DNA from: a bacterium
Lineage (GTDB): Bacteria; Omnitrophota; Gorgyraeia; Zapsychrales; Zapsychraceae
NCBI GenBank assembly: GCA_030429765.1
Contig: JAUIER010000012.1
Coordinates: 32,916 to 96,915, forward strand
DNA: 64,000 nucleotides
Direction: 5' to 3'
In this document: positions 1-20,108 of the stretch, one piece after another
Position numbering within the stretch: the stretch's first letter is position 1
How the letters are laid out: the number at the start of each line of letters is the position of its first letter
Translations under genes and position numbers: made by a program
Notes under the pieces: model-generated
What the model saw: only the letters and a program-made list of their open reading frames with translations
Told to the model about the DNA's origin: nothing
Databases searched by the model: none

Positions 1-3000
1 GAATTTCCAGATTGGCTGACCATTAGGAAATCTCAAACCACCACCAGCCGGCGTTGGACTTTCATCGTATCGTGTTACCCGAAACTTGACTATACCATCC
101 GTATTGAACAGCTCATAGCAACGCTTCAACCCCCCCTTTCGGGTATAGGTCTCCACCTTGGGCCACTTAGGATCGGGACCTCCACCAACTCCACAGGCAT
201 TGTTACACCTCTTGGGTATTCGTCCCTCGACCTTTACGATATGCCAATAGGCCTCTCCCGGAGCTGCCGGCCTGTTTTCAGGTGAATTATCCTCCTGCCA
301 CCCATAAACGATTTGATTGGGCCAATCATCTGGTGGCGCTGCGTCATAGGCTATCCGTTCGTCGATCAACGGAGGAACCGCGTTGGTCAGAAAATCCTCA
401 AATTCGACGATGGCTGTGGTGAGAATATTCCGGAAGTAGTTTAACTCAGTCATTCTCGAATCCAGATAATCCCGGCGCATAATAAATTTGTCGATCTGGT
501 TTTCCGCCTCTATAGCCGCCGTTCCCGTGGAGGCTAGCCATCCTCCCGGGTTAATGTCACAAATAGGATTGGCCTGCACCAGTGAATCTCGCACCAACGT
601 GCGCATTCCGCGAGCATCATTCAAATCATTACCGTTACAGTCAAATATGGCATTAAAGTTGGAAATAGTTCCGCTGTAGGCATAAGCGGCCCCACTAGAC
701 GATTGAGTTAACGGCATGGCGGATAACACCGGATTCCATGGTAATCCGGCCGCCATTCCACGGCAGGTTAAATCCGAGCAGGCGTGAACACATTGGAGCA
801 TAGCAGCCATATCCGGCTCATCCAGCGGATCGGCCTGCACGTAGGCATTTCGATCATATGGCGGATTCGTCACCAATGTTCGCGGCAAATTGGTACATTC
901 GGCCAATGAGCAGGTTAGTTTACAATCATTGTACTGTGCATCGTTGCCGTCAAATATGCTTGATGCATTCAGACAGGCTACATCGGGGACCCCCCCGTTA
1001 CAAGTGTAATCATATCCGTGTATCGCGTAGTTGAGGCAAGCCACAACATCCTCAATTTGTCCATCCGTGCCGTCACCATTAAAGTCAAAAGTCAATTCCT
1101 CATAGGCACTTACGTCCGGACATCCCCGTGGCGGTACACACCACGGCCCCGTCGCACAAGCACTTCCCTGAAAACTTTGGACGGCCAGTGCACTCAGCTC
1201 ATCCCGAATGTCCACCAAGGCCTGTAGCCACAAATACAACTGCCCGGCAAATGGTTGGCATTCATCCGGCGTTCCCGGATCATTATCCCAATCATAAGGG
1301 TAGCAATTACCAAAATTGCCCGTCCCTCCTGGACTGGCCGCATTGGCCAATCCCTGGCCCGGATCGATCCATCGCTGCCAATTCTCAAACCATGTCTCAA
1401 ATTGCGATGCCAACTGACCGCGACTGTATTGCAATAGCGAATCAGCTTCTCGCGTAAATGTGTGCGTGTTATATATCATCTCGTCAAGAATATCCTCAGG
1501 GAAATTAGCGGCCGCGGTATCAGCTGGGCTGGTTGACGTCGGGTCCTCGCACTCACATATGGATGGTTCAGGGGTTCCGGAGACATTCGTCGTACAGTTA
1601 CCGTTCAGGAATTTGGCACATTGCCCACTGTAAGGCCATGCGGAAGGACCATCTATATCACCATTGGAACAAAATTGATCAGACCCACGCTTCCAGAATG
1701 CCCCCCCGGCATATGGGTCCGGCGCACATGTATCAACCGGGATTTCAAACGAACCTGTTAACGCCAAGGTCACATCATCAACATACGTCTCTACACAGTA
1801 GGATGTGTCATACGTCATGGTTGACGGGTCATTCCGTAATACCAGCTGATTCATTTCATATGGAAGATTAGGCGAACACAATGTAGCAGCCCTTGAATCA
1901 CACCATTTACACCGCTGGTCAAATGGGTTATAGACAGGGTTACCGATGACAAGCGTGCCCACCGTGTCCAATGAGTCCAGATCGGTTCCCCAGTCATGGA
2001 TCTTCCACAAGAATGGGAACACACCTATACGGTTTTCCGGAGTTGATGGCGGAGGAGCCGTGTACCCCGAATAGAATCCGGTGGTGTCGTCGACATAGTA
2101 ACGAATTCCCTGCCACGGAGGAGCAAACTGCTGCGCCCAGTTAGGGTTGGAGGAATCCTTGAAGTATCGTTGATTCTCGTCATCCTTGCCTAGGAGTTCC
2201 CGGAAGGAGAAAAAGGTATTTTCAGAATTTTCGAAATTTTCGTCAAAAACCCACTGATAGAAAGTCCCCAATGATGGCTCTACAGCCCCATATGGACTAA
2301 GCAATTGACAGGTACTGGCCGTTCCGCACTCCAAGTTTGGCGGGAAGAGTGTTGGATCACAGTAATCAGGGTTGGGTACCGTGATCAACGGTCCAGACGG
2401 GTTTGTTGGATCTGGTATCTGAATCGTCGGAGGTTTACCTCGACAGTCACAACATCCTGGTCGAACCTGAATCTGTCCAAAGGAAGGGCCTCGAGGATCA
2501 GGTACCGTGTCTGGCAAACAACACAAATTACACTCGGATGGGACCGAAAAAGGAAACGGATCGGTTACAGGATTGCCGTAAGGAACGTTGATATCCACGT
2601 GGCAAGGATGCGATGGATCCAGCGGAATCGAAAACGAGTAGTTGATAGTGCTGGTTTGCAGACCCGGGACGAAAGTTCCTGGCATGGGGTCAATTAGCGC
2701 CCAAGCCGGCTGGCAGGTCGCAGAATCCAAATCACATTCAGAGGCCGGTCCACAGGTGGTTCCAAAACAATCTCCGTTGGGCCCCGGAATCTTGTAAATA
2801 AAATCTTGAAGATCAACCAAAAATTGCTCTGCCGCAGGCAGATAATTTACGGCTATCTGGTCCAGCAAGAGCGGATAATATTTGGCGTACCGGTTCATGG
2901 TATCAAGCGGTTCAGATGTCACCGGATGAAGACCAAAGATACCATCCATATCTGAATCGTACAAATCTGGAACCTGCTTGTTGTCATTGGCTGCCACTTG

Positions 3001-3474
3001 AATAGCCCCGCGCATGGCGTTGGCCATAAACTGATCCACCGTATCCAGTAAGTTGGCCTCCAGATTATTCCATGCGCTGGTGATTTGGGAGCCTATGGAC
3101 ATTTGGAGTACCACCCCGACACCGGCAACAGCCACCGTGGTTATCGCAGCTGTCGCCCCAATAGCACCAACCCCGTACGTTACAACAACCAGAATAACAA
3201 TTACAATAAACGATATCAGCGCCTTGAAGAATCCTGTGCTTTGGCATTTCTTGCGTTCCCCACCCAGCTGCTGCATAAGCAACGAGTGCCCGTAGCTGGC
3301 CATGGCCGAGGCCAATGATGCCGCCCCGGTATTAGCCCCTATCTCCGTGGAAACTTTGTTTTCAGAGATCCGCCCCAAATTTAGTGTTACAGCATAAAAT
3401 ATCAACGCAAATGCGACAACCAAAAGGATAACCAGTCCGGCCTGGCCTTCTTTTTTTCGCATCGATTTGTTCAT
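1..3474 (-). CDS. Giant Cys-rich TadG-like protein, partial: N-terminus at 3474, C-terminus beyond the window start. N-terminal Tad/TadE-like pseudopilin-type TM segment (MNKSMRKKEGQAGLVILLVVAFALIFYAVTL), then a Cys/Pro/Gly/Asp-rich extracellular region.
   Basis: Manual translation of the reverse strand from ATG at 3474 stays open to position 1 (1158 codons) with no stop. The ORF track shows only short spurious ORFs here, because the long ORF has no stop inside the window. N-terminal hydrophobic segment resembles Tad/TadG (PF13400-like) proteins. About 50 Cys, including CC and CxC pairs. Confidence 0.6.
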   Translation of the reverse strand, partial: MNKSMRKKEGQAGLVILLVVAFALIFYAVTLNLGRISENKVSTEIGANTGAASLASAMASYGHSLLMQQLGGERKKCQSTGFFKALISFIVIVILVVVTYGVGAIGATAAITTVAVAGVGVVLQMSIGSQITSAWNNLEANLLDTVDQFMANAMRGAIQVAANDNKQVPDLYDSDMDGIFGLHPVTSEPLDTMNRYAKYYPLLLDQIAVNYLPAAEQFLVDLQDFIYKIPGPNGDCFGTTCGPASECDLDSATCQPAWALIDPMPGTFVPGLQTSTINYSFSIPLDPSHPCHVDINVPYGNPVTDPFPFSVPSECNLCCLPDTVPDPRGPSFGQIQVRPGCCDCRGKPPTIQIPDPTNPSGPLITVPNPDYCDPTLFPPNLECGTASTCQLLSPYGAVEPSLGTFYQWVFDENFENSENTFFSFRELLGKDDENQRYFKDSSNPNWAQQFAPPWQGIRYYVDDTTGFYSGYTAPPPSTPENRIGVFPFLWKIHDWGTDLDSLDTVGTLVIGNPVYNPFDQRCKWCDSRAATLCSPNLPYEMNQLVLRNDPSTMTYDTSYCVETYVDDVTLALTGSFEIPVDTCAPDPYAGGAFWKRGSDQFCSNGDIDGPSAWPYSGQCAKFLNGNCTTNVSGTPEPSICECEDPTSTSPADTAAANFPEDILDEMIYNTHTFTREADSLLQYSRGQLASQFETWFENWQRWIDPGQGLANAASPGGTGNFGNCYPYDWDNDPGTPDECQPFAGQLYLWLQALVDIRDELSALAVQSFQGSACATGPWCVPPRGCPDVSAYEELTFDFNGDGTDGQIEDVVACLNYAIHGYDYTCNGGVPDVACLNASSIFDGNDAQYNDCKLTCSLAECTNLPRTLVTNPPYDRNAYVQADPLDEPDMAAMLQCVHACSDLTCRGMAAGLPWNPVLSAMPLTQSSSGAAYAYSGTISNFNAIFDCNGNDLNDARGMRTLVRDSLVQANPICDINPGGWLASTGTAAIEAENQIDKFIMRRDYLDSRMTELNYFRNILTTAIVEFEDFLTNAVPPLIDERIAYDAAPPDDWPNQIVYGWQEDNSPENRPAAPGEAYWHIVKVEGRIPKRCNNACGVGGGPDPKWPKVETYTRKGGLKRCYELFNTDGIVKFRVTRYDESPTPAGGGLRFPNGQPIWKF

Positions 3475-3509
3475 AAATGACATCATATAATTGATTGTCC
3501 CGGGGCTAA

Positions 3510-3791
3510 TTAGTTGTCCCAAATAGCATTCATCGCCGTCCCCGACGAGAAAAATGGAGAAATCTGTGCAATTTGCTGACTGTCAGATACATTGGTATAT
3601 GACCGGCTCAACGTTTGACCGGTCAATATTGTGTCATGCGCAATCCTACGATTTACGATCTCTTTTCCTGACCATTCAAAAATTTTGGTTATCGAATAAA
3701 TCATCAGAAACACGATGATCATACTGAAGGTAAACTCAATGATGACCTGACCCAAGCGTCGTTCTTCAGATGTCTTCTTTCTTCGAATCAT
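3510..3791 (-). CDS. TadE-like pseudopilin (93 aa)
   Basis: N-terminus RRLGQVIIEFTFSMIIVFLMI matches the TadE-like pattern (basic residues, then G-Q/A, then an E-containing hydrophobic helix). Spacing to neighbours is 18-40 nt. Confidence 0.55.
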   Translation of the reverse strand: MIRRKKTSEERRLGQVIIEFTFSMIIVFLMIYSITKIFEWSGKEIVNRRIAHDTILTGQTLSRSYTNVSDSQQIAQISPFFSSGTAMNAIWDN

Positions 3792-3830
3792 TATATCATA
3801 CTCCTAACCGAGGAAATTGCCTACCAAATT

Positions 3831-5246
3831 TTACGGATATAGATACTGAACAAATGGATCTCCGTCCGTCGGCGTTATCCATTTTCGGCCATGCTTATCT
3901 GTTATCCGGCTTCGGACCAAAATGTGAGGATCCTGCCCGCCCAAAGTAGGAATAACCATACAGATTCTTGTCGCATTGGCGCTGGTAAAACAACAGGCAT
4001 TATTCGGACAGCACACCTCCACAGGATTACGCACATCTGATGTCCACCCAGCCTGATTTCCTTCAATCGTGCCCGGTTGAACTACAGAACTTCCATCCCC
4101 CGCCGTACCGTTGCAAAATCTGCCCGTATCATTACTCAGTTGAACCGTCCTCTGGATCAAATCAAGTGAATCTTTACGCTGTGCAGAACGAACATATCGT
4201 CTGGAATCGCCAGCCACCTGATACAACTGCCCCTCATCGATTTGAAGATAAGTGCCCACACCGTCACCGGCAGGTGTCCAATCTTTCGTAAATGTAAACA
4301 TTTGGATGTCTTGTGTCGTGATGCCCGCTGTCGGACGCTGCGGAGCCGGATTGAGAGGATCCGGATCTGGAATTGTAAAGTCCATGTCCCCTTCCTGGAA
4401 ATCCACCACATTGGCTGTTATCGGAGTCCCCCTCAGATCATCCATTGGACGGCCGTTGATACCAACAATCCTTTCCTGGTGCAAATCTCCATCGACATCC
4501 ACAAATGTAAATTCACCGTTTTCACCATCTATCTGTGAAGGTGTCGCAGCAATCCACTGCCACCAAAAATCCTGGCAGATCGCATCCATAGCCGGATCCG
4601 ACGCCAGTCCGTCATCAAGAGCCCCGTTTCGATCCAAATCGAATCGGTAGTAGTTGTTACCGCCGATATTGTCCACACAATTGGACGCCGTACCTCCACA
4701 ATCGCACCATGGTAATGCCGGGTGGTTGTTTTCTTTCTGATATACCAGCCCCGTGGGGTTGGCCGGAGAATTAAATGCCTTTGTCGCCACATTGGCTGTA
4801 GTGAACACAAAGTGCACCCCGTTAATAAAGTAATCGATAACCGGCAAATTGGCAAATTCACCCGGATCAATCGGCATAAAAAGATTACGACTATGGGTTG
4901 CTCCCCCAATCGCTTGTTGGGGAACCCTGTCGATTGGTGCCTGCCTGGAAGATTCCACCGACAGCCTATCTTCAATTACCAAAACTGAGGCACTGTTGCG
5001 GGAGGCGGTGCCATCACGCCAGTTTCCCGGAACATTTTTCAAACCTTCCGTAAATTCAAATGACATGAGCATCGCCAAGCGGAATGCTTTATAGCGATGA
5101 TTTTGTGCATAACTAGTTGTCATGACAGATCTTACAATAAGTCCAATAACAAAAACCACAACCGATCCAAACACCGCTAGTTCCAGAGCAGTTTGCGCTG
5201 TTTTGGATCGCCCCGAAATGGCTTTTTTTGTACGGTTAATATTCAT
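3831..5246 (-). CDS. Large TadE/TadG-like pseudopilin-type protein (471 aa). C-terminal Cys-rich region (VCCPNNACCF).
   Basis: N-terminus GRSKTAQTALELAVFGSVVVFVIGLIV is a Tad-type pseudopilin leader plus TM. Shares CC motifs with the giant gene downstream. Confidence 0.6.
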   Translation of the reverse strand: MNINRTKKAISGRSKTAQTALELAVFGSVVVFVIGLIVRSVMTTSYAQNHRYKAFRLAMLMSFEFTEGLKNVPGNWRDGTASRNSASVLVIEDRLSVESSRQAPIDRVPQQAIGGATHSRNLFMPIDPGEFANLPVIDYFINGVHFVFTTANVATKAFNSPANPTGLVYQKENNHPALPWCDCGGTASNCVDNIGGNNYYRFDLDRNGALDDGLASDPAMDAICQDFWWQWIAATPSQIDGENGEFTFVDVDGDLHQERIVGINGRPMDDLRGTPITANVVDFQEGDMDFTIPDPDPLNPAPQRPTAGITTQDIQMFTFTKDWTPAGDGVGTYLQIDEGQLYQVAGDSRRYVRSAQRKDSLDLIQRTVQLSNDTGRFCNGTAGDGSSVVQPGTIEGNQAGWTSDVRNPVEVCCPNNACCFTSANATRICMVIPTLGGQDPHILVRSRITDKHGRKWITPTDGDPFVQYLYP

Positions 5247-5249: not shown

Positions 5250-5564
5250 CTAGTATGCTCCCACAGCCATAGAACCGGTTTTGGTTTCCAGTGAACGCGA
5301 GACATCATTACGCATTGTTTGCAGTCCAGACGGAGTCGATACAGACACCAGAGCCGTAACCGTATTCGTTTGAATAACATGACGTATACTTCCATTAGTC
5401 GTTCGAGGATCATACTGATCGCCTAATTGATCCACCGATTCTTTCCAACGTCCTTGCATGCCTCGCTTGAAGTAGTTTTGAGAGGCCACCAAGGCCCCTA
5501 TTACGATAATTAAAATCGTCGAGTATTCGATCGCTGATTGACCTTTGTTCTTTCTAATAATCAT
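5250..5564 (-). CDS. Flp-family (class III signal peptide) pilin-like protein, 104 aa
   Basis: N-terminus MIIRKNKGQSAIEYSTILIIVIGALVA carries the G/A-Q-x3-EY prepilin motif followed by a hydrophobic helix. Confidence 0.55.
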   Translation of the reverse strand: MIIRKNKGQSAIEYSTILIIVIGALVASQNYFKRGMQGRWKESVDQLGDQYDPRTTNGSIRHVIQTNTVTALVSVSTPSGLQTMRNDVSRSLETKTGSMAVGAY

Positions 5565-5591
5565 ATATTTATACCTCGACTTTATTCACCA

Positions 5592-5939
5592 TTAAACGTC
5601 TGGTTGGATCCCCAAATTAGTCAGGGTGTTAAGTTGGCCTGAAATCGCATCATCATAGACATAATTGATTATGCCGGCTACGTCTAATGTTTGCTTGTCT
5701 ACTCTGGCACTGGATATGCCATAAGATGCATTCAAATGCCCCTGGGTTATATCATTGAATCGCTGATCGGATTCGTTCTGCACGCCAATTTGATCGGCCA
5801 CAAATCTAATCCAACCTTGGGTGGAACGACGGATCATCGTTCCCATAACAGCCGTAATTGCCACAATAATCGTCAAAATCAGCGTATATTCGACCACCGT
5901 CTGGGCTCTGTGATTAGATTGTTTACTTTGCTTGAGCAT
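5592..5939 (-). CDS. Flp-family pilin-like protein, 115 aa
   Basis: N-terminus ...HRAQTVVEYTLILTIIVAITAVMG (A-Q-x3-EY motif plus hydrophobic helix). Confidence 0.5.
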   Translation of the reverse strand: MLKQSKQSNHRAQTVVEYTLILTIIVAITAVMGTMIRRSTQGWIRFVADQIGVQNESDQRFNDITQGHLNASYGISSARVDKQTLDVAGIINYVYDDAISGQLNTLTNLGIQPDV

Positions 5940-5944
5940 ATAAA

Positions 5945-6325
5945 TTAGTCCGCGTTTATGGCCGGAACTGTGAAACTGACAGAATTTGAAAATGTTGTTT
6001 GGTTGTAATCCTTGCGAAATATTCCAGAACTAAGTGGCAAGGAAGGTAATACGGCCGTCGTATCTGCAAATAAGGTCGTGGTATCTGTAACAGAATTTCG
6101 ATAGTATGGCTCATACTGTACGAAGACATCATTACCTCCGTAGATGTTTCCTACACGATTTCGAACGGTCGTGATAATGGAACTGTGGGCATCGCGAATT
6201 TTTGCCTGCACAGCCCGTCTAAAGTACATTGTCATTCCTGACAGCATGGCAACAACCACAAAAAAAACCAGAACATATTCTCCGGCGACCATTTGGGCTT
6301 TTTCATTTTCAAATCGTCTTAACAT
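5945..6325 (-). CDS. Flp-family pilin-like protein, 126 aa
   Basis: N-terminus ...EKAQMVAGEYVLVFFVVVAMLSGMTMY (A-Q-x4-EY motif plus hydrophobic helix). Confidence 0.5.
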   Translation of the reverse strand: MLRRFENEKAQMVAGEYVLVFFVVVAMLSGMTMYFRRAVQAKIRDAHSSIITTVRNRVGNIYGGNDVFVQYEPYYRNSVTDTTTLFADTTAVLPSLPLSSGIFRKDYNQTTFSNSVSFTVPAINAD

Positions 6326-6423
6326 TCTGGTCCTTTTTTAACACGGTAAGCTTCTCTATTATACACGAATCTATGGATAAAGATCAACTAAAAACACGTA
6401 TCACAAATTGTGAGCTACTTCAA

Positions 6424-6474
6424 CAAAATATGGCTTACCTGAGCAATTATATTCCTCAAGTAAGCCATATTTTG
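6424..6474. repeat. Perfect 15-bp inverted repeat (CAAAATATGGCTTAC … GTAAGCCATATTTTG) with a 21-bp spacer, in the pilin-cluster intergenic region
   Basis: Exact reverse-complement arms seen directly. Adjacent TCACAAATTGTGA palindrome at 6401..6413. Confidence 0.6.
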
Positions 6475-6509
6475 AACAAAACGACTAGCGAGTAGCCGTT
6501 TAGACTGTA

Positions 6510-6839
6510 TTAGTTACCCCAGAATTCTGACGTGTTGTTCAGAATTGCAGAGTTCATTAGGTCATACGTTGTCTCTGCTTGAGTCAACTGAGATCGTGTA
6601 ACCCCAGAAGCAAAAGTATCACGAGACTGTCCGATGACAACCATTTTCTTGATTACGTTAGTGTTACCTTCGGAATACTGTTGTCCAATATCATCAGCCG
6701 CTTGCTTCAATCGTCCTTGAACACCACGTTTGATGTATACCTGGATCGATAAAAGGGCACCAATGATAATGATGATCAGAATCGCATATTCCAATGTACT
6801 CTGACCTTTTTTTCTTTTCTTGTTAAAGTACTTAAGCAT
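6510..6839 (-). CDS. Flp-family pilin-like protein, 109 aa
   Basis: N-terminus MLKYFNKKRKKGQSTLEYAILIIIIIGALLSI. Nearly identical leader to the 7312..7533 paralog. Confidence 0.6.
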   Translation of the reverse strand: MLKYFNKKRKKGQSTLEYAILIIIIIGALLSIQVYIKRGVQGRLKQAADDIGQQYSEGNTNVIKKMVVIGQSRDTFASGVTRSQLTQAETTYDLMNSAILNNTSEFWGN

Positions 6840-6900
6840 TGATATATCCTCCCAAATTAATCCTCTAAGTTAATAGAGGGATTAAGTTATTATCTTCAGA

Positions 6901-7260
6901 TTACAGACCTTGAATAAGACCAAGCGCGGTGTTATATGATGATTCTTGGAAACCACCAACCCCTCTTGTTCTTGCGTTATCTGTTTGCTCAGCAACTGTC
7001 GTGTTATCCAATGTTTGGATTTGGTTAGTCGCTGTATCAATCAGATAATCAGTTTGTAGGTAATACGGCTCGTATTGTGCTGCTGTTCCCAAAGCGTTTG
7101 ATTGAGTAGTCATGTACTGCCCAGCTTCACGAACCCTGGCTTGTAGAGCACGTTGTGCATATGTCTGCATCGCAATAATACCGGCCACAACCAGTGAAAT
7201 CAGGATGGCATATTCTGCAGTATTTTGCGCCTTTTTATTTTTTATTAACTTTCTGAACAT
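6901..7260 (-). CDS. Flp-family pilin-like protein, 119 aa
   Basis: N-terminus MFRKLIKNKKAQNTAEYAILISLVVAGIIAM. Confidence 0.55.
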   Translation of the reverse strand: MFRKLIKNKKAQNTAEYAILISLVVAGIIAMQTYAQRALQARVREAGQYMTTQSNALGTAAQYEPYYLQTDYLIDTATNQIQTLDNTTVAEQTDNARTRGVGGFQESSYNTALGLIQGL

Positions 7261-7311: not shown

Positions 7312-7533
7312 TTAGTTAGAAGTAGGTCGTGAAGTGGCCAATCGGTTAGCCATATCAGTCATACCGTTTGTACCCGTCGTTAGTGTACTGTTGTACGCTG
7401 TACGGAAGATACCATTAGGTCCTAGGAAAACCAAAAGGGCTGCTAATACGGCCGCAACCAAAATGATATACTCAACGGTACTTTGACCTTTCTTTTTCTT
7501 TTTAGGATTATTATTTATATTCCTTTTAAGCAT
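7312..7533 (-). CDS. Flp-family pilin, 73 aa
   Basis: N-terminus ...KKKKKGQSTVEYIILVAAVLAALLVFLGPNG. Shares the FLxPNG motif with the orphan gene at 17400..17612. Confidence 0.6.
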   Translation of the reverse strand: MLKRNINNNPKKKKKGQSTVEYIILVAAVLAALLVFLGPNGIFRTAYNSTLTTGTNGMTDMANRLATSRPTSN

Positions 7534-7592
7534 TGTCTTCCTCCTTAAAAAAGTTCACTTTTAAGATAGCGCCCACAAAACTTCATCGTGGG

Positions 7593-7760
7593 TTACTGAT
7601 TTCTGGACTCTTGAAGAATTATTTGTTGTGTTGCTTGTACTGATCTAAATACATAGGTACTCATGGCAATTGCTCCTGCTGCCACAATGGCTGCGATTAA
7701 GGCATACTCTAGTATACTTTGACCTGTCGTGTTTCTGATTTTTTGTTTCTTTGACCTCAT
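7593..7760 (-). CDS. flp: Flp prepilin, 55 aa (MRSKKQKIRNTTGQSILEYALIAAIVAAGAIAMSTYVFRSVQATQQIILQESRNQ). Below the ORF-track size cutoff.
   Basis: Found by manual reverse-strand translation. Classic Flp motif: a predicted cleavage site after G, then QSILEYALIAAIV. Typical Flp size. First gene after a dedicated promoter and leader. Confidence 0.6.
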   Translation of the reverse strand: MRSKKQKIRNTTGQSILEYALIAAIVAAGAIAMSTYVFRSVQATQQIILQESRNQ

Positions 7761-8164: not shown

Positions 8165-9895
8165 TTATATTAGGTCGAAGTTTAGCCGCCGCCCCTGTCG
8201 ATCCCGGATGTCCCGTGAATTGATCTCCTTGACCGCATGAATTAGCGAAGCCTTTGAATCCGCGGCCGATCCTGCCGAAATAGTCACATATACATGGCTC
8301 TCGTCCAATCGGTATGTGGCGGCACGGTCAAAAGTATCTGAAATTGTTAGACTTACGTATTTGCTGAGATATTGCCCCTCTACATAGGCCTGAACATGAG
8401 ATAAAAGTTGCTCGAACATTCCATCGACGTTCATTATAGTTGTCGCTGCGATCGGTTGAGAAGCCGACGGATCCTCATTTGAGGATACGGGCGCTTGATT
8501 GACATATTTCCGCATGAATGCATCCAGGATGTCCGTATCGGCCGTTTCTGCATTAGTAACCAGGGCCACTAGCGGCTCAGGTGATTCGTGAGCCCAAATG
8601 GCAAATACTGTCAGTGGCTGACTCAAATCATGAACATGTTCGTTCAGAATGTCGGTCGACATCTTGGCATACTGATAGATTGTGTCGTCATCATGACAGT
8701 AATAGGGGATTCGCTGGGCCCATTTCCCCGATTTGACCAATTCCTTCAGTTCTGGCTGACTTGGATGGACTCCAATGATAAATTCCCTGCGCTTAGGGAC
8801 CACGAAGGGTAGACTGGACAATGATCGTGATTCGCCATCAAGTATGTGGACCTCGTTTATAAAAAGCTGCTCTGGAATCTCAAATGATTCGACTAACGCC
8901 GCTATCTCCGGGCTTCCCAAGGAGCGTCCCTCGCTATTAAGCAGACACAAAGTATTGCTATTACTGACGATACAGCTGTCCAAAACAGAAATAGCCTTGT
9001 AAAGCGGTAGCTTCGTTGAAAAATTGTCATTTTTTTGTCCAATCTGAAATAGCTTTGTGTCCAGTTTTAGAGATCGTCCATCCGAAAAATCGATCTGGAA
9101 ACTCTGCGCCATGTTCTTGAGTTGATCAATCTCCAACTCTGCACGGGCCCAAAACGAGCCTGACTGTGAAGAATCAGTAATTTTGCCAATGACTCCCTCA
9201 TTTTGGAGTGGAAGCAACAAGGCTAAATCATTTCGACCTGAGTCTGAAGGGCCATTTTTCTCAAGCCTTGTGAGAATCTGAAAATCCAAGGCCTGGATCG
9301 TTTCCTGAGAATTAATGTCCAAACTGAGATCTCGAAAGAGTTCTGTGTAAAAATTTGACGATAGACATTCACATACACCGGCCAACATAAAAGTCAATCC
9401 TGCGTTGCTAATCGGATGCTCCTCCAAACCTTGTTTCCTTGACCGAATTGTTTCTACGGAGCGTAAGAACTCTTCGTCCAAACCACTCTCAGATTGGACA
9501 TTATTTTTGATCGCGTCCATTTCTTCTGTTTGACCAGAATCCGACATTGTCTGTACAGCTTCACTCTTTGTCGGATCATTTTCCTGGGGAGTAGTGACCC
9601 CTTCGGTTTCGGTCGGTATCGGGATCTTGGTGAGGTCCTGCGAAATCTGAATTTTCTTTTCAGCCGGGATCTCAAACTTCTTTTTCTTCTCGACCTTGAC
9701 CTTGGCCGGTCGACCAACGGAATTGCTTAAATTAGCTTGTTTTAGGATGGTGTTGATGGAGGATTTTGACACCTTGATCTCAAATTTCTCAGATGTCATC
9801 TCGGCTAGTTTTCGACAGCCCAGCTTGGGATTTGATTGCTTCTGATCAAGTATATAGTCGATAACTTCTTTTTTTAGTTTGTGGACAACACCCAT
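8165..9895 (-). CDS. HTH-domain protein of unknown function, 576 aa. N-terminal transposase/regulator-like HTH, a Lys-rich linker, then a large uncharacterised soluble region.
   Basis: N-terminal 60 aa (…KLGCRKLAEMTSEKFEIKVSKSSINTILKQANLS) looks like an IS630/ISL3-type HTH. No TM segments. Sits where tadB/tadC would be expected. Confidence 0.65.
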   Translation of the reverse strand: MGVVHKLKKEVIDYILDQKQSNPKLGCRKLAEMTSEKFEIKVSKSSINTILKQANLSNSVGRPAKVKVEKKKKFEIPAEKKIQISQDLTKIPIPTETEGVTTPQENDPTKSEAVQTMSDSGQTEEMDAIKNNVQSESGLDEEFLRSVETIRSRKQGLEEHPISNAGLTFMLAGVCECLSSNFYTELFRDLSLDINSQETIQALDFQILTRLEKNGPSDSGRNDLALLLPLQNEGVIGKITDSSQSGSFWARAELEIDQLKNMAQSFQIDFSDGRSLKLDTKLFQIGQKNDNFSTKLPLYKAISVLDSCIVSNSNTLCLLNSEGRSLGSPEIAALVESFEIPEQLFINEVHILDGESRSLSSLPFVVPKRREFIIGVHPSQPELKELVKSGKWAQRIPYYCHDDDTIYQYAKMSTDILNEHVHDLSQPLTVFAIWAHESPEPLVALVTNAETADTDILDAFMRKYVNQAPVSSNEDPSASQPIAATTIMNVDGMFEQLLSHVQAYVEGQYLSKYVSLTISDTFDRAATYRLDESHVYVTISAGSAADSKASLIHAVKEINSRDIRDRQGRRLNFDLI

Positions 9896-9960: not shown

Positions 9961-10326
9961 CTAACCAAGAATAATTTTGTCAGCGACTTGAGTGCGGGAA
10001 GATTGGATGACTCCTACTGGAACTTCGATGGCGGATTTTGCCTTCCAGTAAATTCGGCTTAGCCGATTGGGTCGGATATTTTGGACCAAACCCACCACGG
10101 TATTATTGTCATCGATAAAAATCACATCAATGGCGAAACGCATAAAGAACATGTGAATAGAATTACAATGGGTGATTAGCAGACCGTGACCCGGCTCTAG
10201 GGACTTGTGCTTAAGTAATCCCACCATTCTGGACATAAAGGTATCTGCTAAGACGGCTTGATCTGCGATAACCGTATTACGGGTGGAGTTTTCTATCTTC
10301 ATAAGGGTTAGGTTTTGATGTGCCAA
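9961..10326 (-). CDS. DUF192 (COG1430) family protein, 121 aa
   Basis: Size and sequence pattern (…GLLITHCNSIHMFFMRFAIDVIFIDDNNTVVGL…) typical of DUF192. Confidence 0.6.
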   Translation of the reverse strand: MAHQNLTLMKIENSTRNTVIADQAVLADTFMSRMVGLLKHKSLEPGHGLLITHCNSIHMFFMRFAIDVIFIDDNNTVVGLVQNIRPNRLSRIYWKAKSAIEVPVGVIQSSRTQVADKIILG

Positions 10327-10344: not shown

Positions 10345-12504
10345 CTAGACAGGCTTGTTGAACATCTCTTTATTGAAGTTCATTCCACGGGTAATAAAGT
10401 CGTGGTAACAGTTGGGGACGTATCCTGTGGCCTCAAACTGACCGAGAATCTTGCCATTGCTGTCCATCCCCTTTTGTTTAAATACAAAAACATCCTCGAG
10501 ATGAAGTTGAAAATCGGCCGTGAGTCCTGTTGTCTCGCTGACCCCCGTGATCTTTCTCGAACCGTCTGAATAACGGTTGATGTGAACGATGATCTGAATC
10601 GCTGAGGAGATCATCTCGTTAATCGCACGCACTGGCAGCTCGATACCACTTAACAGAATCATCGAGTGCATTCGGGTCAATACATCGCGTGTTGAGTTGG
10701 CGTGTAGCGTGGTCATTGATCCATCGTGACCGGTATTCATCGCCTGAAGCATATCAAGAACCTCGCCCCCGCGACACTCACCGATAACAATCCGGTCAGG
10801 ACGCATCCGCAGACAGTTGATAAACAAATCACGAATCGTGATCTGCCCTTTACCCTCAACGTTCGCTGGGCGTGACTCCAGACGTCCCCAATGGCTTTTC
10901 TTCAATCGAAGCTCAGCGGCGTCCTCAATCGTGATAATACGCTCGCTGTCGGGAATAAATTCTGAAACGACGTTTAGGAGCGTTGTTTTACCCGCACCTG
11001 TACCACCCGAAACGATCATATTTTTACGGCAAATAACACATGCCTGAAGAAAATCGGCCATTTCCTTGGTGATACTGCCGTATTTTTCAATCAAATCATT
11101 GACCTCGATACGTTCCTGCCCAAACTTTCGAATGGTGATCATTGGTCCGCCCAACGACAAAGGTGGAATAATGGCATTGATCCGCGATCCGTCCTGCAGA
11201 CGGGCATCAACCATCGGAGTCGATTCATCGATTCGTCGACCTAATGGCGCGATGATACGATCAATAATGGAGCGCATCTTTTCATTGGAAACAAATTTTC
11301 GATTGGTAAAAATCAACTTACCATTCTTCTCGACGTAGATTTCGTCCTTGTTGTTGACCATGATATCCGTTACGTCGGGATCGGCCAGGAAATCTTCCAA
11401 AGGACCCAGTCCAAGGGCCTCATTGACAATATCACGGACCACGCGTGTGCGCTCTTCTTGTGAGGAAATCTTACCACCAGACTCCTCCATAAGTAAGTTA
11501 AGAACGACCTGCTCGGCGCTTTTCTTGACCTTTACCGCCGATTCCGGATCACCCAGCATATCAACCGAAATTCCGTCGAGATTAAGCCGTTCGACCAATT
11601 TCTCATGAATCCGTTTCTTCAGCGATATAATCTCATCCTCTTCCGTCGCAAATGTCGTTGTCGTTCCCGCTTGCTGCGTGACACCAAATTTTTCCCAGAA
11701 CGATCCTTGTCCGGACATACCGTCAGTTGATCTGACCTTTTCGACATTGCTGGTCTCAACGTAAATATCGTTCTTCTTGAGCGCATTGACCATTTTGTTG
11801 AATGCATCAGCCACCCCGCTGCGAGGGCTATCTAATACGCAAGGAATCCCCTTGTTAAGGGCCATTCCGACCGTTTTTCCATCTGAAGGAATGTGCGCTA
11901 ATATTTCAACTGGAATCGCCGATCGAACTTCCTGCCAATGGACACTTCCGCGGCTCTCCGAACGGTTTAAGATCAGGCGGACCATATTCATCGGGTAGTG
12001 GAGACTCTGTAAAACGTCCAGACAATTCTTAATCTGATACACAGATAAAATATCCGGCGTTCCGACGAGAAGAATCAAATTCGTGTGGTCCAGCGCGGCG
12101 ACTAGAATATCACTAAACGTACGACCGGCATCAATAATGACATACTCGTATTGTTTGCGGGCAATACGAAAGAACGCCTGTAAAGCCTCGGCATTAACCT
12201 GAGCGATTTCTTTATTGTTTTTTATGGCTGGTAGGAAATGAAGTCCACTTTGATGGACGGTGGCATGCTGAGCTAACGGATCTTGATCGGCATTTGGATT
12301 GCTGAACGTGGGTATGATATCGACGACGGAATTACGAACCTGGACATTAAGCATTCGGGACATATCCTGTCCGGCCTGCATGTCTAGATCGACGAGCAAC
12401 ACCTTTTTTCCAGCTTTGGCTAGTGAAGCCGAAAGGTTTACTGCCGTCAGCGTTTTTCCAACCCCGCCCTTGCTGCTAAAGACGGTAATAATTCTACAAT
12501 CCAT
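10345..12504 (-). CDS. Fused pilus ATPase: N-terminal TadZ/CpaE-like ParA/MinD-type domain (no receiver domain) plus C-terminal TadA/CpaF secretion ATPase
   Basis: Deviant Walker A SSKGGVGKTLTAVNLS at residues 10-25 (ParA/MinD class). Second P-loop VSGGTGAGKTTLLN with T2SSE-family motifs (RIITIEDAAEL, GHDGSMTTLHANS) in the C-terminal half. Confidence 0.85.
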   Translation of the reverse strand: MDCRIITVFSSKGGVGKTLTAVNLSASLAKAGKKVLLVDLDMQAGQDMSRMLNVQVRNSVVDIIPTFSNPNADQDPLAQHATVHQSGLHFLPAIKNNKEIAQVNAEALQAFFRIARKQYEYVIIDAGRTFSDILVAALDHTNLILLVGTPDILSVYQIKNCLDVLQSLHYPMNMVRLILNRSESRGSVHWQEVRSAIPVEILAHIPSDGKTVGMALNKGIPCVLDSPRSGVADAFNKMVNALKKNDIYVETSNVEKVRSTDGMSGQGSFWEKFGVTQQAGTTTTFATEEDEIISLKKRIHEKLVERLNLDGISVDMLGDPESAVKVKKSAEQVVLNLLMEESGGKISSQEERTRVVRDIVNEALGLGPLEDFLADPDVTDIMVNNKDEIYVEKNGKLIFTNRKFVSNEKMRSIIDRIIAPLGRRIDESTPMVDARLQDGSRINAIIPPLSLGGPMITIRKFGQERIEVNDLIEKYGSITKEMADFLQACVICRKNMIVSGGTGAGKTTLLNVVSEFIPDSERIITIEDAAELRLKKSHWGRLESRPANVEGKGQITIRDLFINCLRMRPDRIVIGECRGGEVLDMLQAMNTGHDGSMTTLHANSTRDVLTRMHSMILLSGIELPVRAINEMISSAIQIIVHINRYSDGSRKITGVSETTGLTADFQLHLEDVFVFKQKGMDSNGKILGQFEATGYVPNCYHDFITRGMNFNKEMFNKPV

Positions 12505-12560
12505 AATTTCAAACTTACTGAAGAATGACTAATGAAAATTTAACGTATTATATACCGCTA

Positions 12561-14222
12561 TTAGTTTGTTTGCAAACTATAAACAATCGGAATTGTTATG
12601 TTCAGTTCCTGTAAGTCTGTCTCTGGTGGAAAACTTTCAAAAGGTGCAGTTTCACGGGCTGTATTTAAGGCATAGTCATCAAAGATTTCCTGCCCGGATG
12701 TTTCCTTGACTAGAGCATAGGCCAACGTGCCATCGCTCAGGATGTGCAGACCGATTTTGACAGTCCCTTCCCATCCGTAATCCTTGGCCTCCTGAGGATA
12801 AACAACTTGCTCAGAAATAGCCTGCTGAAGGTTTTGCACGTAATCGGTCATTTCCGGTGGAATAAATGACGAGTAGTCATCTCCTCCGGACATGGACATA
12901 TCCGACATAAACTTCGTCGTCGTAGGGTGCGGAACCTGACTATCCATCATCTTTTTACGAGGCGAATCCTCATTGAGCCCCGTATCGATTCGATGAGGTG
13001 TTAGTGAAATCACTAACTCGACATCTGAATCTGGTGATGGTGTTGATCGGGATCGGAAAACCAATCCGACAACTGGAATGCTGCCTAAAAATGGTACCTT
13101 TTTAACCAATTCACCCGAACGCTGTTGGATCAAACCGGCCAATACGATCGTTTGTCCATCATCAAGGAATAGCTGTGTGCTTGCGCTTCGCGTAACGAAG
13201 GCCACGTCATCCCCCACCGCATTCGAGTTGTCAATATCACTGATCTCAATATTGATCTGAACGTCAATCTTGTTACGCCGAATCGTCGGTGTGATCGTCA
13301 TTCCAATACCATACTCCTTAAATTCGACGTTTTCTTGAGTAGACGTTCCTGTCGATGTCGTCGTACGAATTGGAATTTCACCACCAATTAGGAAACTAGC
13401 CTCTTCGCCGCTCAGAACTACGAGTTTAGGTTGCGATAGGATTCGTCCCATACCTTCTTCTAATAGAGCATTTACGGTAGAAATCAGGGCGCTTGTACGA
13501 CGGAAGTCCCCAATCTTGAAGAAATCTCCAATGGATCCATCAAAATCAGGCAAGTCCTCTGCATAGTCCAGCTTAATACCTCCGCCGGATCCGGTGGCGC
13601 CATTACCACCACCAGCTGTCCAGTCAATCCCTAGACTCTTGGTTAAGGTGGTGTTAAGCTCCGTAACTTGTATGTCGATTTGAACCAAATCTTCGATGTC
13701 CTCTTCTTCCACAAGGCTTAGAACATGTTGGTCAAACGGAGCAATGATATCATCAAACAGTATGGCCTTTTTGTCAGGCACACTACCAGTTAGGACAACC
13801 CGCCCTTCCGGCTTATTGATATCCAATTTTACGTTGTTAATTCCAGCCCCATTGAGAAGTCGTTCAAGTCGATCTTTAATGACGCTTAACTCGGTTCCTG
13901 AGACGTTAATCATAACCACACGTTTGCCATGTTCGTCCCAGATAAATAAAGGTGTTTGGCCCACGTTTTTGGCAATCAGCAGGATTTCCTGTTCGTCGGC
14001 ATCGACAACGTCAGCAATGTCTGGATCAGTCATCGAAAGTCGGGTCAGGGAATATACGCGTAGTTGCGTCAACTCCCCCAGAACCATGTTGACTTCATCG
14101 GTGTATATTGTATCTAAAGCCTCAGCATCGGCTTGTTGAGGTCTTATTAGCCCAAGTCCCATTATTAGGAAGAGCGCCATTATGGTGAAAAATCTGTTAT
14201 GAGTTATCTGTGCTGTTTTCAT
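12561..14222 (-). CDS. CpaC/RcpA-type secretin with a C-terminal TonB_C-like domain
   Basis: Signal peptide, secretin N-domain, secretin core (…LIGGEIPIRTTTSTGTSTQENVEFKEYGIGMTITPTI…). The C-terminal roughly 90 aa (VVYPQEAKDYGWEGTVKIGLHILSDGTLAYALVKETSGQEIFDDYALNTARETAPFESFP) matches the TonB C-terminal domain pattern (PF03544). Confidence 0.8.
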   Translation of the reverse strand: MKTAQITHNRFFTIMALFLIMGLGLIRPQQADAEALDTIYTDEVNMVLGELTQLRVYSLTRLSMTDPDIADVVDADEQEILLIAKNVGQTPLFIWDEHGKRVVMINVSGTELSVIKDRLERLLNGAGINNVKLDINKPEGRVVLTGSVPDKKAILFDDIIAPFDQHVLSLVEEEDIEDLVQIDIQVTELNTTLTKSLGIDWTAGGGNGATGSGGGIKLDYAEDLPDFDGSIGDFFKIGDFRRTSALISTVNALLEEGMGRILSQPKLVVLSGEEASFLIGGEIPIRTTTSTGTSTQENVEFKEYGIGMTITPTIRRNKIDVQINIEISDIDNSNAVGDDVAFVTRSASTQLFLDDGQTIVLAGLIQQRSGELVKKVPFLGSIPVVGLVFRSRSTPSPDSDVELVISLTPHRIDTGLNEDSPRKKMMDSQVPHPTTTKFMSDMSMSGGDDYSSFIPPEMTDYVQNLQQAISEQVVYPQEAKDYGWEGTVKIGLHILSDGTLAYALVKETSGQEIFDDYALNTARETAPFESFPPETDLQELNITIPIVYSLQTN

Positions 14223-14225
14223 AGT

Positions 14226-15104: not shown

Positions 15105-15117
15105 AGTTTCACCTCGG

Positions 15118-16125: not shown

Positions 16126-16371
16126 TTGAGGCTCCTTACTATTTGCAATTTTTATTTATAAAGTATATCCGCTATCCTCGCCTCTGACAAGCCTGTTTCG
16201 GCTGTTTATGCAAAATTATCAAAATTTTACATATCTTTGGCAATTAAATCATCGAATAACTTGCCCAATATTTGTGCAACACATTCAATGATATCATATT
16301 ATGAGAGCAATGCAAAATTTTTTAGGCTTATTTTTTGTAAATATATGATTTTTATATATTTATGTTATTTT

Positions 16372-17355: not shown

Positions 17356-17399
17356 ACTTTCCTCCTTAACATAAATATTTGGAATTAAAAGATTTAGGA

Positions 17400-17612: not shown

Positions 17613-17640
17613 GAAATCCCCCTGTGCGTGCGCGTAATTG

Positions 17641-18429: not shown

Positions 18430-18507
18430 TCACTCAAGATTGTCGTCGATATTGAACCTGAAACCTATTCTCATTCTAGTTTCATATTGTGAAAAAGGCA
18501 ATGTGTT

Positions 18508-19476: not shown

Positions 19477-19481
19477 AAAAA

Positions 19482-20054: not shown

Positions 20055-20108
20055 TTGCGCTCCGATTTGCCAAAAAAGATAGGGCCATCAAATGATGGCC
20101 CTATATAA

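Follow-up and report, generated by a model that had tools for sequence, protein, structure and literature searches.

What do two large, cysteine-rich proteins with pilin-like N-termini do in a Tad-like pilus locus of the Omnitrophota? We addressed this question in a stretch of 64,000 nucleotides, hereafter the window, from a Candidatus Omnitrophota chromosome on which both genes lie inside a complete Tad-like pilus locus, beside dnaA. We refer to the shorter protein, of 471 aa, as p471 and to the longer one as the giant. Neither is described in the literature that we searched, though the locus itself has been published. The most likely reading of our results is that p471 and the giant build the priming or tip end of a Tad-like pilus, as members of a TadE/F/G-like (KilLMN-like) set.

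Both open reading frames are real and far beyond what chance would give, and both belong to large families in which most cysteines are invariant or nearly so. The p471 gene is intact at 3831..5246 on the minus strand (as are all features given below in window coordinates), as an earlier note on this DNA had read it, and has at least 150 relatives; all those to which the source gave a name are Omnitrophota or Omnitrophica. The frame of the giant contains no stop between 3582 and base 1 of the window, and translation could begin at an ATG at 3486, 3483, 3474 or 3462. Counting from 3474, the earlier note had arrived at 1158 aa or more running past the window start, and had proposed extending the contig. 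That extension bore the claim out: on L001, an identical, longer Logan contig whose overlap with the window was checked, the full giant has 1,270 aa (P0001; L001 7991-11803). The window holds the first 1,162 of the 1,270 codons (1..3486), and the remaining 108 lie outside its start. The giant family comprises 832 clusters (50% identity, E ≤ 1e-3).

The composition described in the earlier note, rich in Cys with Pro, Gly, Asp and Asn raised, was confirmed. Cysteine accounts for 3.8% of the giant (44 in 1,161 in-window residues) and 2.1% of p471 (10 in 471), against 0.9% in the window's other ORFs; Trp is also raised in both proteins and Lys is depleted. Each has two CC pairs, and there are two CxC motifs in the giant and one in p471. 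The full-length giant has 48 cysteines, most of them at invariant or nearly invariant positions in the family. In both proteins the cysteines are conserved and mostly even in number (120 of 161 giant-family members, 105 of 119 p471-family members), and the acidic DxDxDG-type loops are invariant. Conservation of the giant peaks in the N-terminal 80 residues and in the C-terminal beta domain, while residues 241-400 and 881-960 are variable and prone to insertions.

The locus encodes nine other pilin-like genes, and a [G/A]↓Gln(+1) site (the arrow marks the cut) is common to all of its pilin-like genes. The gene order p471, p93, giant, 119-aa pilin, TadB, TadC was kept in all related loci examined, down to 24% identity, with the four-gene block always between the small pilins and TadB/TadC. 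A p471 homolog was found upstream of the giant in 27/27 loci having at least 2.9 kb of upstream sequence; p93 and the 119-aa pilin recurred in the same way at their own places in the block, and TadB/TadC followed the giant wherever the contig reached that far (here at L001 12359-14097, outside the window). The minimal pilin-like protein p93 (RRLG↓QVIIEF...; 3510..3791) always separates p471 from the giant, with homologs in the same place in 27 loci, and its N-terminus aligned with that of p471 at an hhalign probability of 84%. The 119-aa pilin, with eight cysteines, lies just outside the window. These four consecutive pilin-like genes are unrelated to one another.

On the other side of p471 stand five pilin-like genes of 104-126 aa within 5250..7260 (5250-5564, 5592-5939, 5945-6325, 6510-6839 and 6901-7260), all with [KR][GA]↓Q-x-x-x-E-Y, with weak Class_IIIsignal matches and with homologs in all loci. 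Two candidate major pilins occupy 7312..7760: a 73-aa class III signal pilin (7312-7533; PF04021, 28.4 bits, above cut-off) and a 55-aa Flp-like pilin (7593-7760; PF04964, E = 4e-4, below cut-off). They are followed by genes assigned with Pfam, namely a 576-aa soluble protein with an N-terminal HTH and no hydrophobic segment (8165-9895) and a DUF192 protein (9961-10326), both at conserved positions in the locus, then a TadZ-TadA fusion ATPase (10345-12504), a secretin with a TonB_C domain (12561-14222), RcpC/CpaB (14226-15104) and a Rotamase_2 PPIase (15118-16125). The genes of p471 and the giant are neighbours within a tad locus that has TadA, TadB, TadC, RcpA, RcpC and Flp. Neither loss of the G/A↓Q site in many relatives nor regular occurrence of the genes outside tad loci was seen. 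The ORFs that were scanned in the window and L001 included no gene for a prepilin peptidase (A24 family). In 13/14 loci with enough sequence, a super-giant ORF of 9,568 to 33,164 aa with a conserved N-terminus comes after TadB/TadC.

The evidence that p471 is a large minor pilin is convincing. Its leader, MNINRTKKAISGRSKTA followed by QTALE (5181..5246), has a putative cleavage site at A17↓Q18 (...SKTA↓QTALELAVFGSVVVFVIGLIV), which places Glu22 at +5. E22 is invariant and Q18 nearly invariant in the family, and 116/120 relatives carry [AGS]Q-x-x-x-E. The N-terminus is homologous to those of the locus pilins (hhalign probability 94.7%, E = 5.8e-8), and the AlphaFold2 model (pLDDT 75, pTM 0.72) has a 64-residue helix, residues 3-66, and then a beta-rich head. 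Foldseek comparison of this model with the PDB returned no pilin and no related solved fold. A motif scan located an EF-hand-like acidic loop, DLDRNGALDD (4611..4640; family consensus RFDLDRxG), with F202 and L204 invariant and D203 almost invariant, and a DxDxDG-type loop, DVDGDLHQE (4473..4499), was found with D250, D252, D254 and E258 invariant. A likeness of the latter to the FG-GAP-type loops of YesX was a weak, motif-level match and not significant (E = 0.13).

For the giant, the pilin reading is supported in part: the G↓Q site is kept, but there is no Glu5, and behind the first helix comes a hydrophobic hairpin of two helices. The protein has a basic leader, MMSFMNKSMRKKEG, that ends at Gly14 (3445..3486) in a putative prepilin-peptidase site (...KKEG↓QAGLVILLVVAFALIFYAVTL). 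G14 and Q15 are invariant in 35/35 aligned relatives, and [GA]Q with a hydrophobic run is found in 162/174. Residues 15-81 (3244..3444), hydrophobic and then amphipathic, with Val at +5, run to an invariant Cys81 and are the most conserved part of the protein (2.8 bits per column); Cys81 lies 67 residues after G(-1) in relatives in which both motifs could be located. Position +5 is I, V, L, M or A in 162/162 scorable relatives and Glu in none, and Glu5 is present in p471, p93 and the 119-aa pilin. Alignment of the giant's N-terminus with the locus pilins reached an hhalign probability of 57%, with a gap at the pilins' x-E-Y. Absence of Glu5 is typical of the known cap subunits, among them GspK and PilX, and so is compatible with a pilin.

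The hairpin, residues 82-135 (3082..3243), is uncharged and by hydropathy consists of two hydrophobic stretches of about 20 residues with a Gly/Pro/Ser/Trp-rich turn between them; it is a putative membrane hairpin. Its length in the scored relatives ranges from 45 to 70 residues, of which at most three, and mostly none, are charged. This second hydrophobic stretch had gone unmentioned in the earlier note. No pilin known to us has such a conserved, uncharged segment directly behind its first helix. A hairpin that spans the membrane twice would be costly to pull into a filament, and together with the absence of Glu5 it means that extraction of the giant from membrane to filament is not assured.

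The giant ectodomain, modelled by AlphaFold2 without the N-terminal 135 residues, gave a pLDDT of 79 and a pTM of 0.77, and Foldseek found no related solved fold for it in the PDB (best E 1.2). Near its start is an acidic DxDxDG-type loop, DNKQVPDLYDSDMDG (2941..2985), a putative Ca2+ site located by motif scan, with D168, D174, D177, D179 and D181 invariant in the family alignment. An EF-hand/dockerin-like acidic loop, DFNGDGTDGQIED (1048..1086), was located by motif scan and family consensus (TFDxNxNGxxGDxEDV). In the model, a 67-residue amphipathic helix, residues 983-1049 (340..540; ectodomain helix 848-914, local pLDDT about 90), runs into a C-terminal beta-sheet domain. The strands of this domain, residues 1081-1160 (7..246), are second in conservation at 2.8 bits per column (WHIVKV...RC...WPKV...KRCYEL...VKFRVTRYDE), with H1082, C1094, C1123, K1134 and R1139 invariant.

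We compared the two proteins with each other and with known families. Neither had any match in Pfam or NCBIfam, enzymatic or other, in keeping with the earlier note, which had seen no enzymatic motifs; the two proteins match no known protein family and no solved fold. The earlier note had also called p471 a paralog of the giant, a label that we drop: BLASTP gave nothing better than E = 1.3, and hhalign of the family alignments gave a probability of 3.5%. A pilin-type leader, a short basic segment that ends in Gly or Ala and runs directly into a hydrophobic helix some 20 residues long, is found in both, as the earlier note had proposed. The N-termini are not equivalent, since p471 has the full motif with Glu at +5 and the giant has G↓Q with an Ile/Val-type residue at +5. 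The description of the leaders as TadE-like holds as a likeness of motif but not as family membership: Pfam TadE (PF07811), Tad_N (PF13400) and TadF (PF16964) gave no match at E ≤ 0.01 in 35 giant-family and 38 p471-family members. The T2SSK and PilC models likewise matched no member of either family. Among the window proteins, the giant and p471 remained unmatched by these models at E ≤ 0.1, and the lone match of the TadF model was the neighbouring 73-aa pilin (E = 0.059). When N-terminal profiles of the two families were searched in the tad loci of Serratia (TadE/F/G) and Ralstonia, the best E values among 285 ORFs were 0.06-0.11. No tandem or internal repeats were found in either protein (Tandem Repeats Finder, self-BLASTP, Pfam repeats), and sequence searches for lectin, Ig, vWA and beta-helix domains were negative in both, as were the checks for repeats and for these folds that the earlier note had proposed. 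A repeat-type adhesin (Ig-like, cadherin, RTX or beta-helix) was rejected for both proteins on the absence of tandem domain repeats.

We put at about 0.5 the probability that p471, p93, the giant and the 119-aa pilin are the minor-pilin set of an Omnitrophota Tad-like (type IVc, archaeal-Epd-like) filament and form its tip. Incorporation into, or priming of, a Tad filament, as first suggested in the earlier note, is supported by the locus context and the pilin features of p471, and for the giant only in part. The cut after the G/A would be made by a prepilin peptidase whose gene lies at another place in the genome, and the N-terminal helices of the four subunits would come together on the TadB/C platform as a bundle that primes assembly of the filament. 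The giant, lacking Glu5, would sit at the top as a cap, as is thought for GspK, PilX and TadG/KilN. Oxidative folding in the periplasm would turn the heads into domains stabilised by disulfides and Ca2+. With extension of the filament through the secretin, they would become its tip, where they may contact the super-giant protein of the neighbouring gene or a cell of the prey or host. For both proteins, then, we infer tip location, Ca2+ binding, disulfides and adhesion.

In predatory Myxococcus, Tad pili are primed by heterotrimeric tip complexes of KilL/M/N, which are homologs of TadE/F/G, and KilN is a large pilin with one domain that has no PDB homolog (PMC12075869). In Bdellovibrio, TadG is treated as a tip protein required for prey invasion, TadZA is a fusion, and the tad loci have no TadV gene (bioRxiv 10.64898/2026.07.08.737194). 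The Omnitrophota locus likewise has a TadZ-TadA fusion and no peptidase gene. It resembles the TadE/F/G and KilL/M/N sets in its consecutive genes within a tad locus, in a short bona fide pilin (p93, as KilM), in larger members with C-terminal extensions, the largest with a domain without PDB homolog (as KilN and TadG), and in its predatory or epibiotic lineage. It differs from them in having no Pfam match of p471 or the giant to TadE, Tad_N or TadF, four genes rather than two or three, 10 and 48 cysteines, the giant's hairpin and Gln always at +1, and its 471 and 1,270 aa look large beside the 169/189/412 aa of Serratia TadE/F/G.

Among the GspH-I-J-K minor subunits, four in number, one is large and lacks Glu5, and GspK binds Ca2+. 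The minor pseudopilins of type II secretion (GspK with GspH/I/J) and PilX/FimU/PilV/PilW of type IVa pili are like the present set in having four minor subunits, with a presumed cap that is the largest of them and has no Glu5. GspK also carries a large alpha-domain inserted in the pilin core, and in the giant conservation is highest in the N-terminal helix and the C-terminal beta domain. Membership of the GspK family was nevertheless rejected: the giant has no T2SSK match in Pfam and no PDB fold match, having only the absence of Glu5 and large size in common with GspK, of which it is presumably about four times the size. The machine is Tad-type rather than Gsp-type, and the hairpin and cysteine content have no counterpart in GspK. 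PilY1/PilC of type IVa pili (about 1,100-1,200 aa) are displayed at the tip with minor pilins, and their Ca2+-binding acidic loops matter for function; the giant is of similar size class and also has conserved acidic loops of the DxDxDG type. PilY1 is not a pilin and has a Sec signal and a C-terminal beta-propeller, and neither a Pfam match to PF05567 nor a propeller-like fold match (Foldseek best E 1.2 for the giant) was obtained for our proteins.

Streptococcus sanguinis PilB (vWA) and PilC (lectin), as cited in PMC12075869, are modular pilins of type IV pili with a bulky functional module as C-terminus, displayed at the tip. The concept of a pilin with a C-terminal tip module is the same, but the S. 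sanguinis modules are recognisable, whereas those of the giant and p471 are not, by sequence or by fold. Archaeal class III signal peptide pilins (PF04021, formerly DUF361) are EppA-type substrates with Gln at +1. Leaders running to [KR][GA]↓Q are found here too, and the 73-aa neighbour lies above the PF04021 threshold, whereas p471 and the giant do not reach it, and the machine here belongs to a bacterium and includes a secretin. An archaeal origin has been proposed for Tad systems, and the leaders and the PF04021 neighbour fit this proposal.

The hairpin leaves a real, though less likely, alternative: that the giant is an inner-membrane-anchored part of the periplasmic machine, with three membrane helices, and not a filament subunit, p471 still being a minor pilin. 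The giant's 1,135-residue disulfide-rich domain would then lie between RcpC, the secretin and the TadB/C platform and would serve to anchor, align or gate them. The giant does have three hydrophobic segments; its hairpin keeps hydrophobicity, length range and central turn rather than sequence, as expected for membrane helices; and most of the ectodomain is highly conserved, unlike that of a purely diversifying adhesin, with adhesin-type domains and repeats absent. However, its G↓Q is the same as in all locus pilins, which suggests the same peptidase, and an uncleaved anchor needs no conserved G↓Q. The absence of Glu5 is a hallmark of cap subunits, the gene lies within the minor-pilin block, and a basic ERKK directly before the hairpin, on what would be the periplasmic side, contravenes the positive-inside rule. 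Such an arrangement is near the older 'membrane anchor' view of TadG.

It is unlikely that the locus is instead a type II secretion-like piston, in which the four pseudopilins would form a short tip that docks the super-giant protein or its fragments and pushes them out or holds them at the surface, the Cys-rich heads being cargo-docking modules rather than prey adhesins. The position of the super-giant ORF after TadB/TadC is consistent with this, as are the dockerin-like acidic loops, the parallel with GspH-I-J-K and the conserved T2SS-like locus reported to precede giant genes (West-Roberts et al., bioRxiv 10.1101/2023.11.21.568195). Against it, the locus has the hallmarks of Tad (TadZ, RcpC, split TadB/TadC, Flp-like pilin) and not GspC/L/M, a protein of such length, from a class reported to have many membrane segments, is an improbable T2SS cargo, and co-location is the sole link to it. 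Least credible is that the two have no part in the filament and reside at the surface or in the periplasm, for instance as structural components of the envelope or as secreted effectors, with an N-terminal anchor and mere co-transcription with tad: they have no detectable homology to characterised pilin families and no fold match, but they show strict synteny in the pilin/TadBC block across the phylum, the [GA]↓Q(+1)...E5 motif is common to nine other pilin-like genes, and p471 has a pilin-homologous N-terminus and a model suggestive of the pilin lollipop, in which a long N-terminal helix packs on a beta-sheet head.

Returning to the preferred reading, a minor-pilin set at the filament tip, we regard one extension of it as a long shot. 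The giant would be a new type of type IV filament cap, cleaved and without Glu5, with its hairpin in the end helix bundle or in the target membrane and a 24-disulfide head that couples the filament to the neighbouring protein of 10,000-33,000 aa. If this were true, the pilus would serve to deploy the super-giant 'attack' protein on prey cells or to anchor it there.

The earlier note had described a Cys-rich protein of at least 1158 aa running off the start of the window, with a 471-aa paralog beside it. Inspection of the first ORF showed a frame open on the minus strand from 3582 to base 1, with candidate ATG starts at 3486, 3483, 3474 and 3462; the length of at least 1158 aa is the count from the ATG at 3474. 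Using the exact sequence of the 471-aa protein (p471; 3831-5246, minus strand), we retrieved an identical contig, L001, from a public assembly (Logan ERR3428548). Window bases 1-200 match L001 exactly, and the contig runs beyond the window edge, where the ORF closes at 1,270 aa (protein P0001, here called the giant); the extension proposed in that note has thus given the complete gene. A 93-aa ORF (p93; 3510-3791, minus strand) lies between the two genes. The reported composition was also borne out, with Cys at 3.8% (44/1,161) in the in-window part of the giant and 2.1% (10/471) in p471, versus 0.9% in the other window ORFs, and with Pro, Gly, Asp, Asn and Trp raised and Lys depleted in both proteins. 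There are two CC pairs in each, and two CxC motifs in the in-window part of the giant and one in p471; the full-length giant has 48 Cys. No tandem or internal repeats were found in either protein. Paralogy, however, was ruled out: the best BLASTP match between the two had E = 1.3, and hhalign comparison of their family alignments gave a probability of 3.5%.

Both genes sit within a complete Tad-like pilus locus. On the minus strand of the window it encodes a Rotamase_2 PPIase (15118-16125), RcpC/CpaB (14226-15104), a secretin with a TonB_C domain (12561-14222), a fusion of a ParA-like TadZ to a T2SSE-type TadA (10345-12504), a DUF192 protein (9961-10326), a soluble 576-aa HTH protein (8165-9895), a 55-aa Flp-like pilin (7593-7760), a 73-aa pilin scoring above the Pfam Class_IIIsignal threshold (7312-7533) and five pilin-like proteins of 104-126 aa (5250-7260), and it ends within the window with p471, p93 and the first part of the giant (1-3486). 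The fusion is a single 719-aa protein (ParA/AAA_31 plus T2SSE), and the same unusual arrangement has been reported in Bdellovibrio bacteriovorus. The C-terminal TonB_C domain of the secretin is also kept in two related loci, L002 and L003. The only recognisable domain of the 576-aa protein is a transposase-type HTH at the N-terminus, and the position of this protein between the DUF192 protein and the Flp pilin is kept in all loci (22-55% identity).

Directly beyond the giant, outside the window, L001 carries a 119-aa pilin with eight Cys (11827-12186), a number that is exactly the same in nearly all loci, and then TadB and TadC, two T2SSF proteins. About 1 kb past TadC begins a super-giant ORF of 9,568 aa with a Peptidase_C39 domain at its N-terminus. 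Between loci, the first 835 residues of these super-giant ORFs, which contain this domain, share 30-51% identity (starting part at 15141-17646 in L001, 18697 onward in L002 and 17032 onward in L003). No prepilin peptidase (Peptidase_A24) gene was present among the Pfam-scanned ORFs of the locus, the window or L001, and the enzyme would have to be encoded elsewhere in the genome. The conserved 576-aa protein was considered for this role and ruled out, being soluble and bearing an HTH.

The window is chromosomal and covers the replication origin region (25521-28105 and about 26000-28000), with dnaA at 26759-28105 followed by dnaN, gyrB and gyrA, and with a sign change in GC skew there. The tad locus lies at most 12 kb from this region; the Tad locus of V. 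archaeovorus occupies genome positions 12382-29832 (Seymour et al., PMC10066038). Elsewhere in the window are a stand-alone PilZ domain protein (49275-49664, plus strand) and six consecutive ORFs (56713-62514, plus strand) that, judged by eye from the ORF list, resemble an nqr operon for Na+-translocating NADH:quinone reductase.

Every relative of the giant or p471 whose source was named came from Candidatus Omnitrophota/Omnitrophica. A scan of GTDB species genomes gave 26 loci, most of them labelled Omnitrophota or Omnitrophica; seven were in MAGs labelled Planctomycetales or Planctomycetia, and one was on a short contig binned as Lysobacterales. At 50% identity the giant family fell into 832 clusters with E ≤ 1e-3, 388 of these with E ≤ 1e-30. 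L002 and L003, the loci of relatives with 29% and 24% identity, have the same gene order as the window locus and terminate in ORFs of 19,267 and 33,164 aa. We surveyed synteny in 29 loci, 27 of which had enough sequence to look upstream of the giant homolog and 14 of which extended at least 2.8 kb past TadC. A p471 homolog was upstream in 27/27, and the same held for p93 and the 119-aa pilin in their places. TadB and TadC came next in every locus whose contig continues, and a homolog of the super-giant N-terminus followed in 13/14. Because this order recurs across the surveyed loci, the p471-p93-giant-119-aa pilin block is a fixed part of this machine.

P0041, a protein encoded at 145-4278 of contig L032, joins about 530 initial residues of the giant family to a GH20 hexosaminidase and was dropped as a functional clue. 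Its contig begins 144 nt upstream of it and has an RND efflux pump downstream instead of the pilin-TadB-TadC genes; P0041 is probably a chimeric assembly. An apparent p471-p93 fusion in another related locus (L014, 7776-9875) is an artefact with a masked base (X in translation) inside it, and the p93 homolog there bears a long Cys-rich C-terminal extension.

The earlier note had read both N-termini as pseudopilin-type, which stood for p471 but in part only for the giant. All eleven pilin-like genes of the locus encode Gln at +1 in the motif [KR][GA]↓Q-x-x-x-E-[YFLI] (arrow, predicted cleavage site), which we take to resemble class III signals of the EppA/DUF361 type in archaea. The corresponding sequence in p471 is ...SKTA↓QTALEL; [AGS]Q-x-x-x-E was found in 116/120 relatives, and E22 is invariant in the alignment. 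In hhalign, its N-terminal 70 residues matched the locus's small pilins (probability 94.7%, E = 5.8e-8) and also p93 (84%). In the giant, G↓Q is retained in 162/174 relatives, with G14 and Q15 invariant in the alignment, but position +5 is Ile, Val, Leu, Met or Ala in 162/162 and never Glu, and comparison with the locus pilins reached just 57%, with a gap exactly at their x-E-Y. Where both motifs could be located in relatives, this Gly lies 67 residues ahead of the invariant C81. Past C81 lies an uncharged stretch of 45-70 residues, not remarked on before, that looks like two hydrophobic helices with a Gly/Pro/Ser/Trp-rich turn; its character is conserved and its sequence is not. It is chiefly this hairpin that stands against reading the giant simply as a pseudopilin. 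Both it and the broad conservation would suit a protein that remains in the inner membrane on three helices as an anchor or alignment module, a role we consider unlikely though worth weighing, as the G↓Q is conserved and the basic residues are on the "wrong" side of the hairpin.

We built AlphaFold2 models on the family alignments for full-length p471 and for the giant ectodomain (residues 136-1270). The p471 model (pLDDT 75, pTM 0.72) has a helix at 3-66 followed by a beta-rich domain, a predicted shape like that of a pilin with a large head. The ectodomain model (pLDDT 79, pTM 0.77) is mixed and non-repetitive, with a helical middle of high confidence and a helix of 67 residues (983-1049) that runs on into a beta sheet at the C-terminus. 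Conservation in the giant peaks in the N-terminal 80 residues, at 1081-1160 in the C-terminal sheet and in the last 30 residues, and residues 241-400 and 881-960 are variable and hold most insertions. This pattern would suit a pilin-like core of N-terminal helix and C-terminal sheet with a large body inserted into it. About 35 of the giant's 48 Cys fall at invariant or nearly invariant positions, and Cys counts are even in 120/161 members of the giant family and 105/119 of the p471 family, which fits an all-disulfide periplasmic or extracellular protein. Invariant acidic loops of DxDxDG or EF-hand type occur in the giant (VPDLYDSDMDG, 172-182; DFNGDGTDGQIED, 801-813) and in p471 (DLDRNGALDD, 203-212; DVDGDLHQE, 250-258), and may bind Ca2+.

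No Pfam or NCBIfam model matched the giant or p471, in agreement with the claim that they lack recognisable enzymatic motifs, and Pfam found no match in 35 giant-family and 38 p471-family members or in the five longest giant-family members. Profiles of both families detected no sequence relatives in the PDB; the p471 DVDGD loop matched FG-GAP-like loops of YesX at motif level, without significance. Foldseek searches of the PDB (both models) and BFVD (giant) gave no match below E = 0.2. Repeat detection, structure prediction and fold search, all suggested previously, have thus returned no repeats and no related solved fold. The TadE, Tad_N, TadF, T2SSK and PilC models did not match either family, and neither family scored significantly against real TadE/F/G genes from the tad loci of a Serratia plasmid and a Ralstonia megaplasmid. 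Because none of these comparisons placed them in a known family, we regard the giant and p471 as functional counterparts of TadE/F/G-type or GspK-type minor pilins, outside those families.

GspH-I-J-K and FimU-PilV-W-X each consist of four minor subunits, the largest without Glu5; the Omnitrophota set likewise has four genes, with the giant the largest and without Glu5. The closest described analogue of the block is the TadE/TadF/TadG set. In Myxococcus, KilL/M/N, of TadE/F/G type, assemble into a heterotrimer at the tip; this complex primes the Kil Tad pilus, and prey killing depends on it. One domain of KilN, a large pilin, lacks homologs in the PDB (PMC12075869). TadG of Bdellovibrio is regarded as a tip protein on which prey invasion depends; Bdellovibrio also has a TadZ-TadA fusion and tad loci without a peptidase gene (bioRxiv 10.64898/2026.07.08.737194), as the Omnitrophota locus has the fusion and, as far as found, no peptidase gene.

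The reading we favour for the four genes is that of a minor-pilin set for a Tad-like filament, and a set that primes the filament and forms its tip is the best explanation overall, with a probability of roughly 0.5. From the parallels with TadE/F/G, Bdellovibrio TadG and the Gsp and Fim/Pil subunits, we propose that a peptidase encoded elsewhere would cleave after the G or A, that the four subunits would bundle on TadB/C with the giant topmost, that their heads would fold with disulfides and Ca2+, and that the complex would sit at the filament tip and contact a host or prey cell or the super-giant protein. We think p471 probably a minor pilin; the giant as an extracted filament cap is a tentative assignment. 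The machine could instead work as a T2SS-like piston, docking the super-giant protein at its tip, an improbable arrangement for which the two pointers are co-location and the description by West-Roberts et al. That the giant and p471 are unrelated envelope proteins is hardly credible given the synteny and the shared N-terminal motif.

The locus as a whole is already published. Seymour et al. described Tad complexes in Velamenicoccia (PMC10066038), and West-Roberts et al. reported that the giant genes are preceded by a conserved T2SS-like locus with over 10 subunits, naming gspD/E/F, rcpC, a Rotamase_2 PPIase and small class III signal peptide genes and finding other components less well conserved (bioRxiv 10.1101/2023.11.21.568195); this description was repeated in a 2026 preprint. 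The literature searched held no description of the 471-aa and 1,270-aa families. New here are two dark, phylum-wide families within a known type of machine, with unusual features in their size, about 24 predicted disulfides, Gln at +1, and a giant with a hydrophobic hairpin and without Glu5.

Omnitrophota are widespread, uncultured and mostly ultra-small, with a presumed predatory or parasitic way of life. Genomic clues to their mode of attack on other cells come chiefly from the super-giant genes and the secretion or pilus locus preceding these, and that locus has so far been known through its recognisable parts alone (gspD/E/F-like genes, rcpC, PPIase and class III signal peptides). The giant and p471, which are among its largest unannotated genes and are conserved across the phylum, are now given a concrete, testable role and placed in a four-gene minor-pilin block. 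Two families are defined for which no Pfam/NCBIfam model or solved-structure relative was detected, and at 50% identity the giant's family comprises at least 832 clusters. Should the giant prove to be a filament cap, it would widen the range of what pilins are able to carry (1,135 residues, about 24 disulfides) and would point to the surface at which Omnitrophota touch their hosts.
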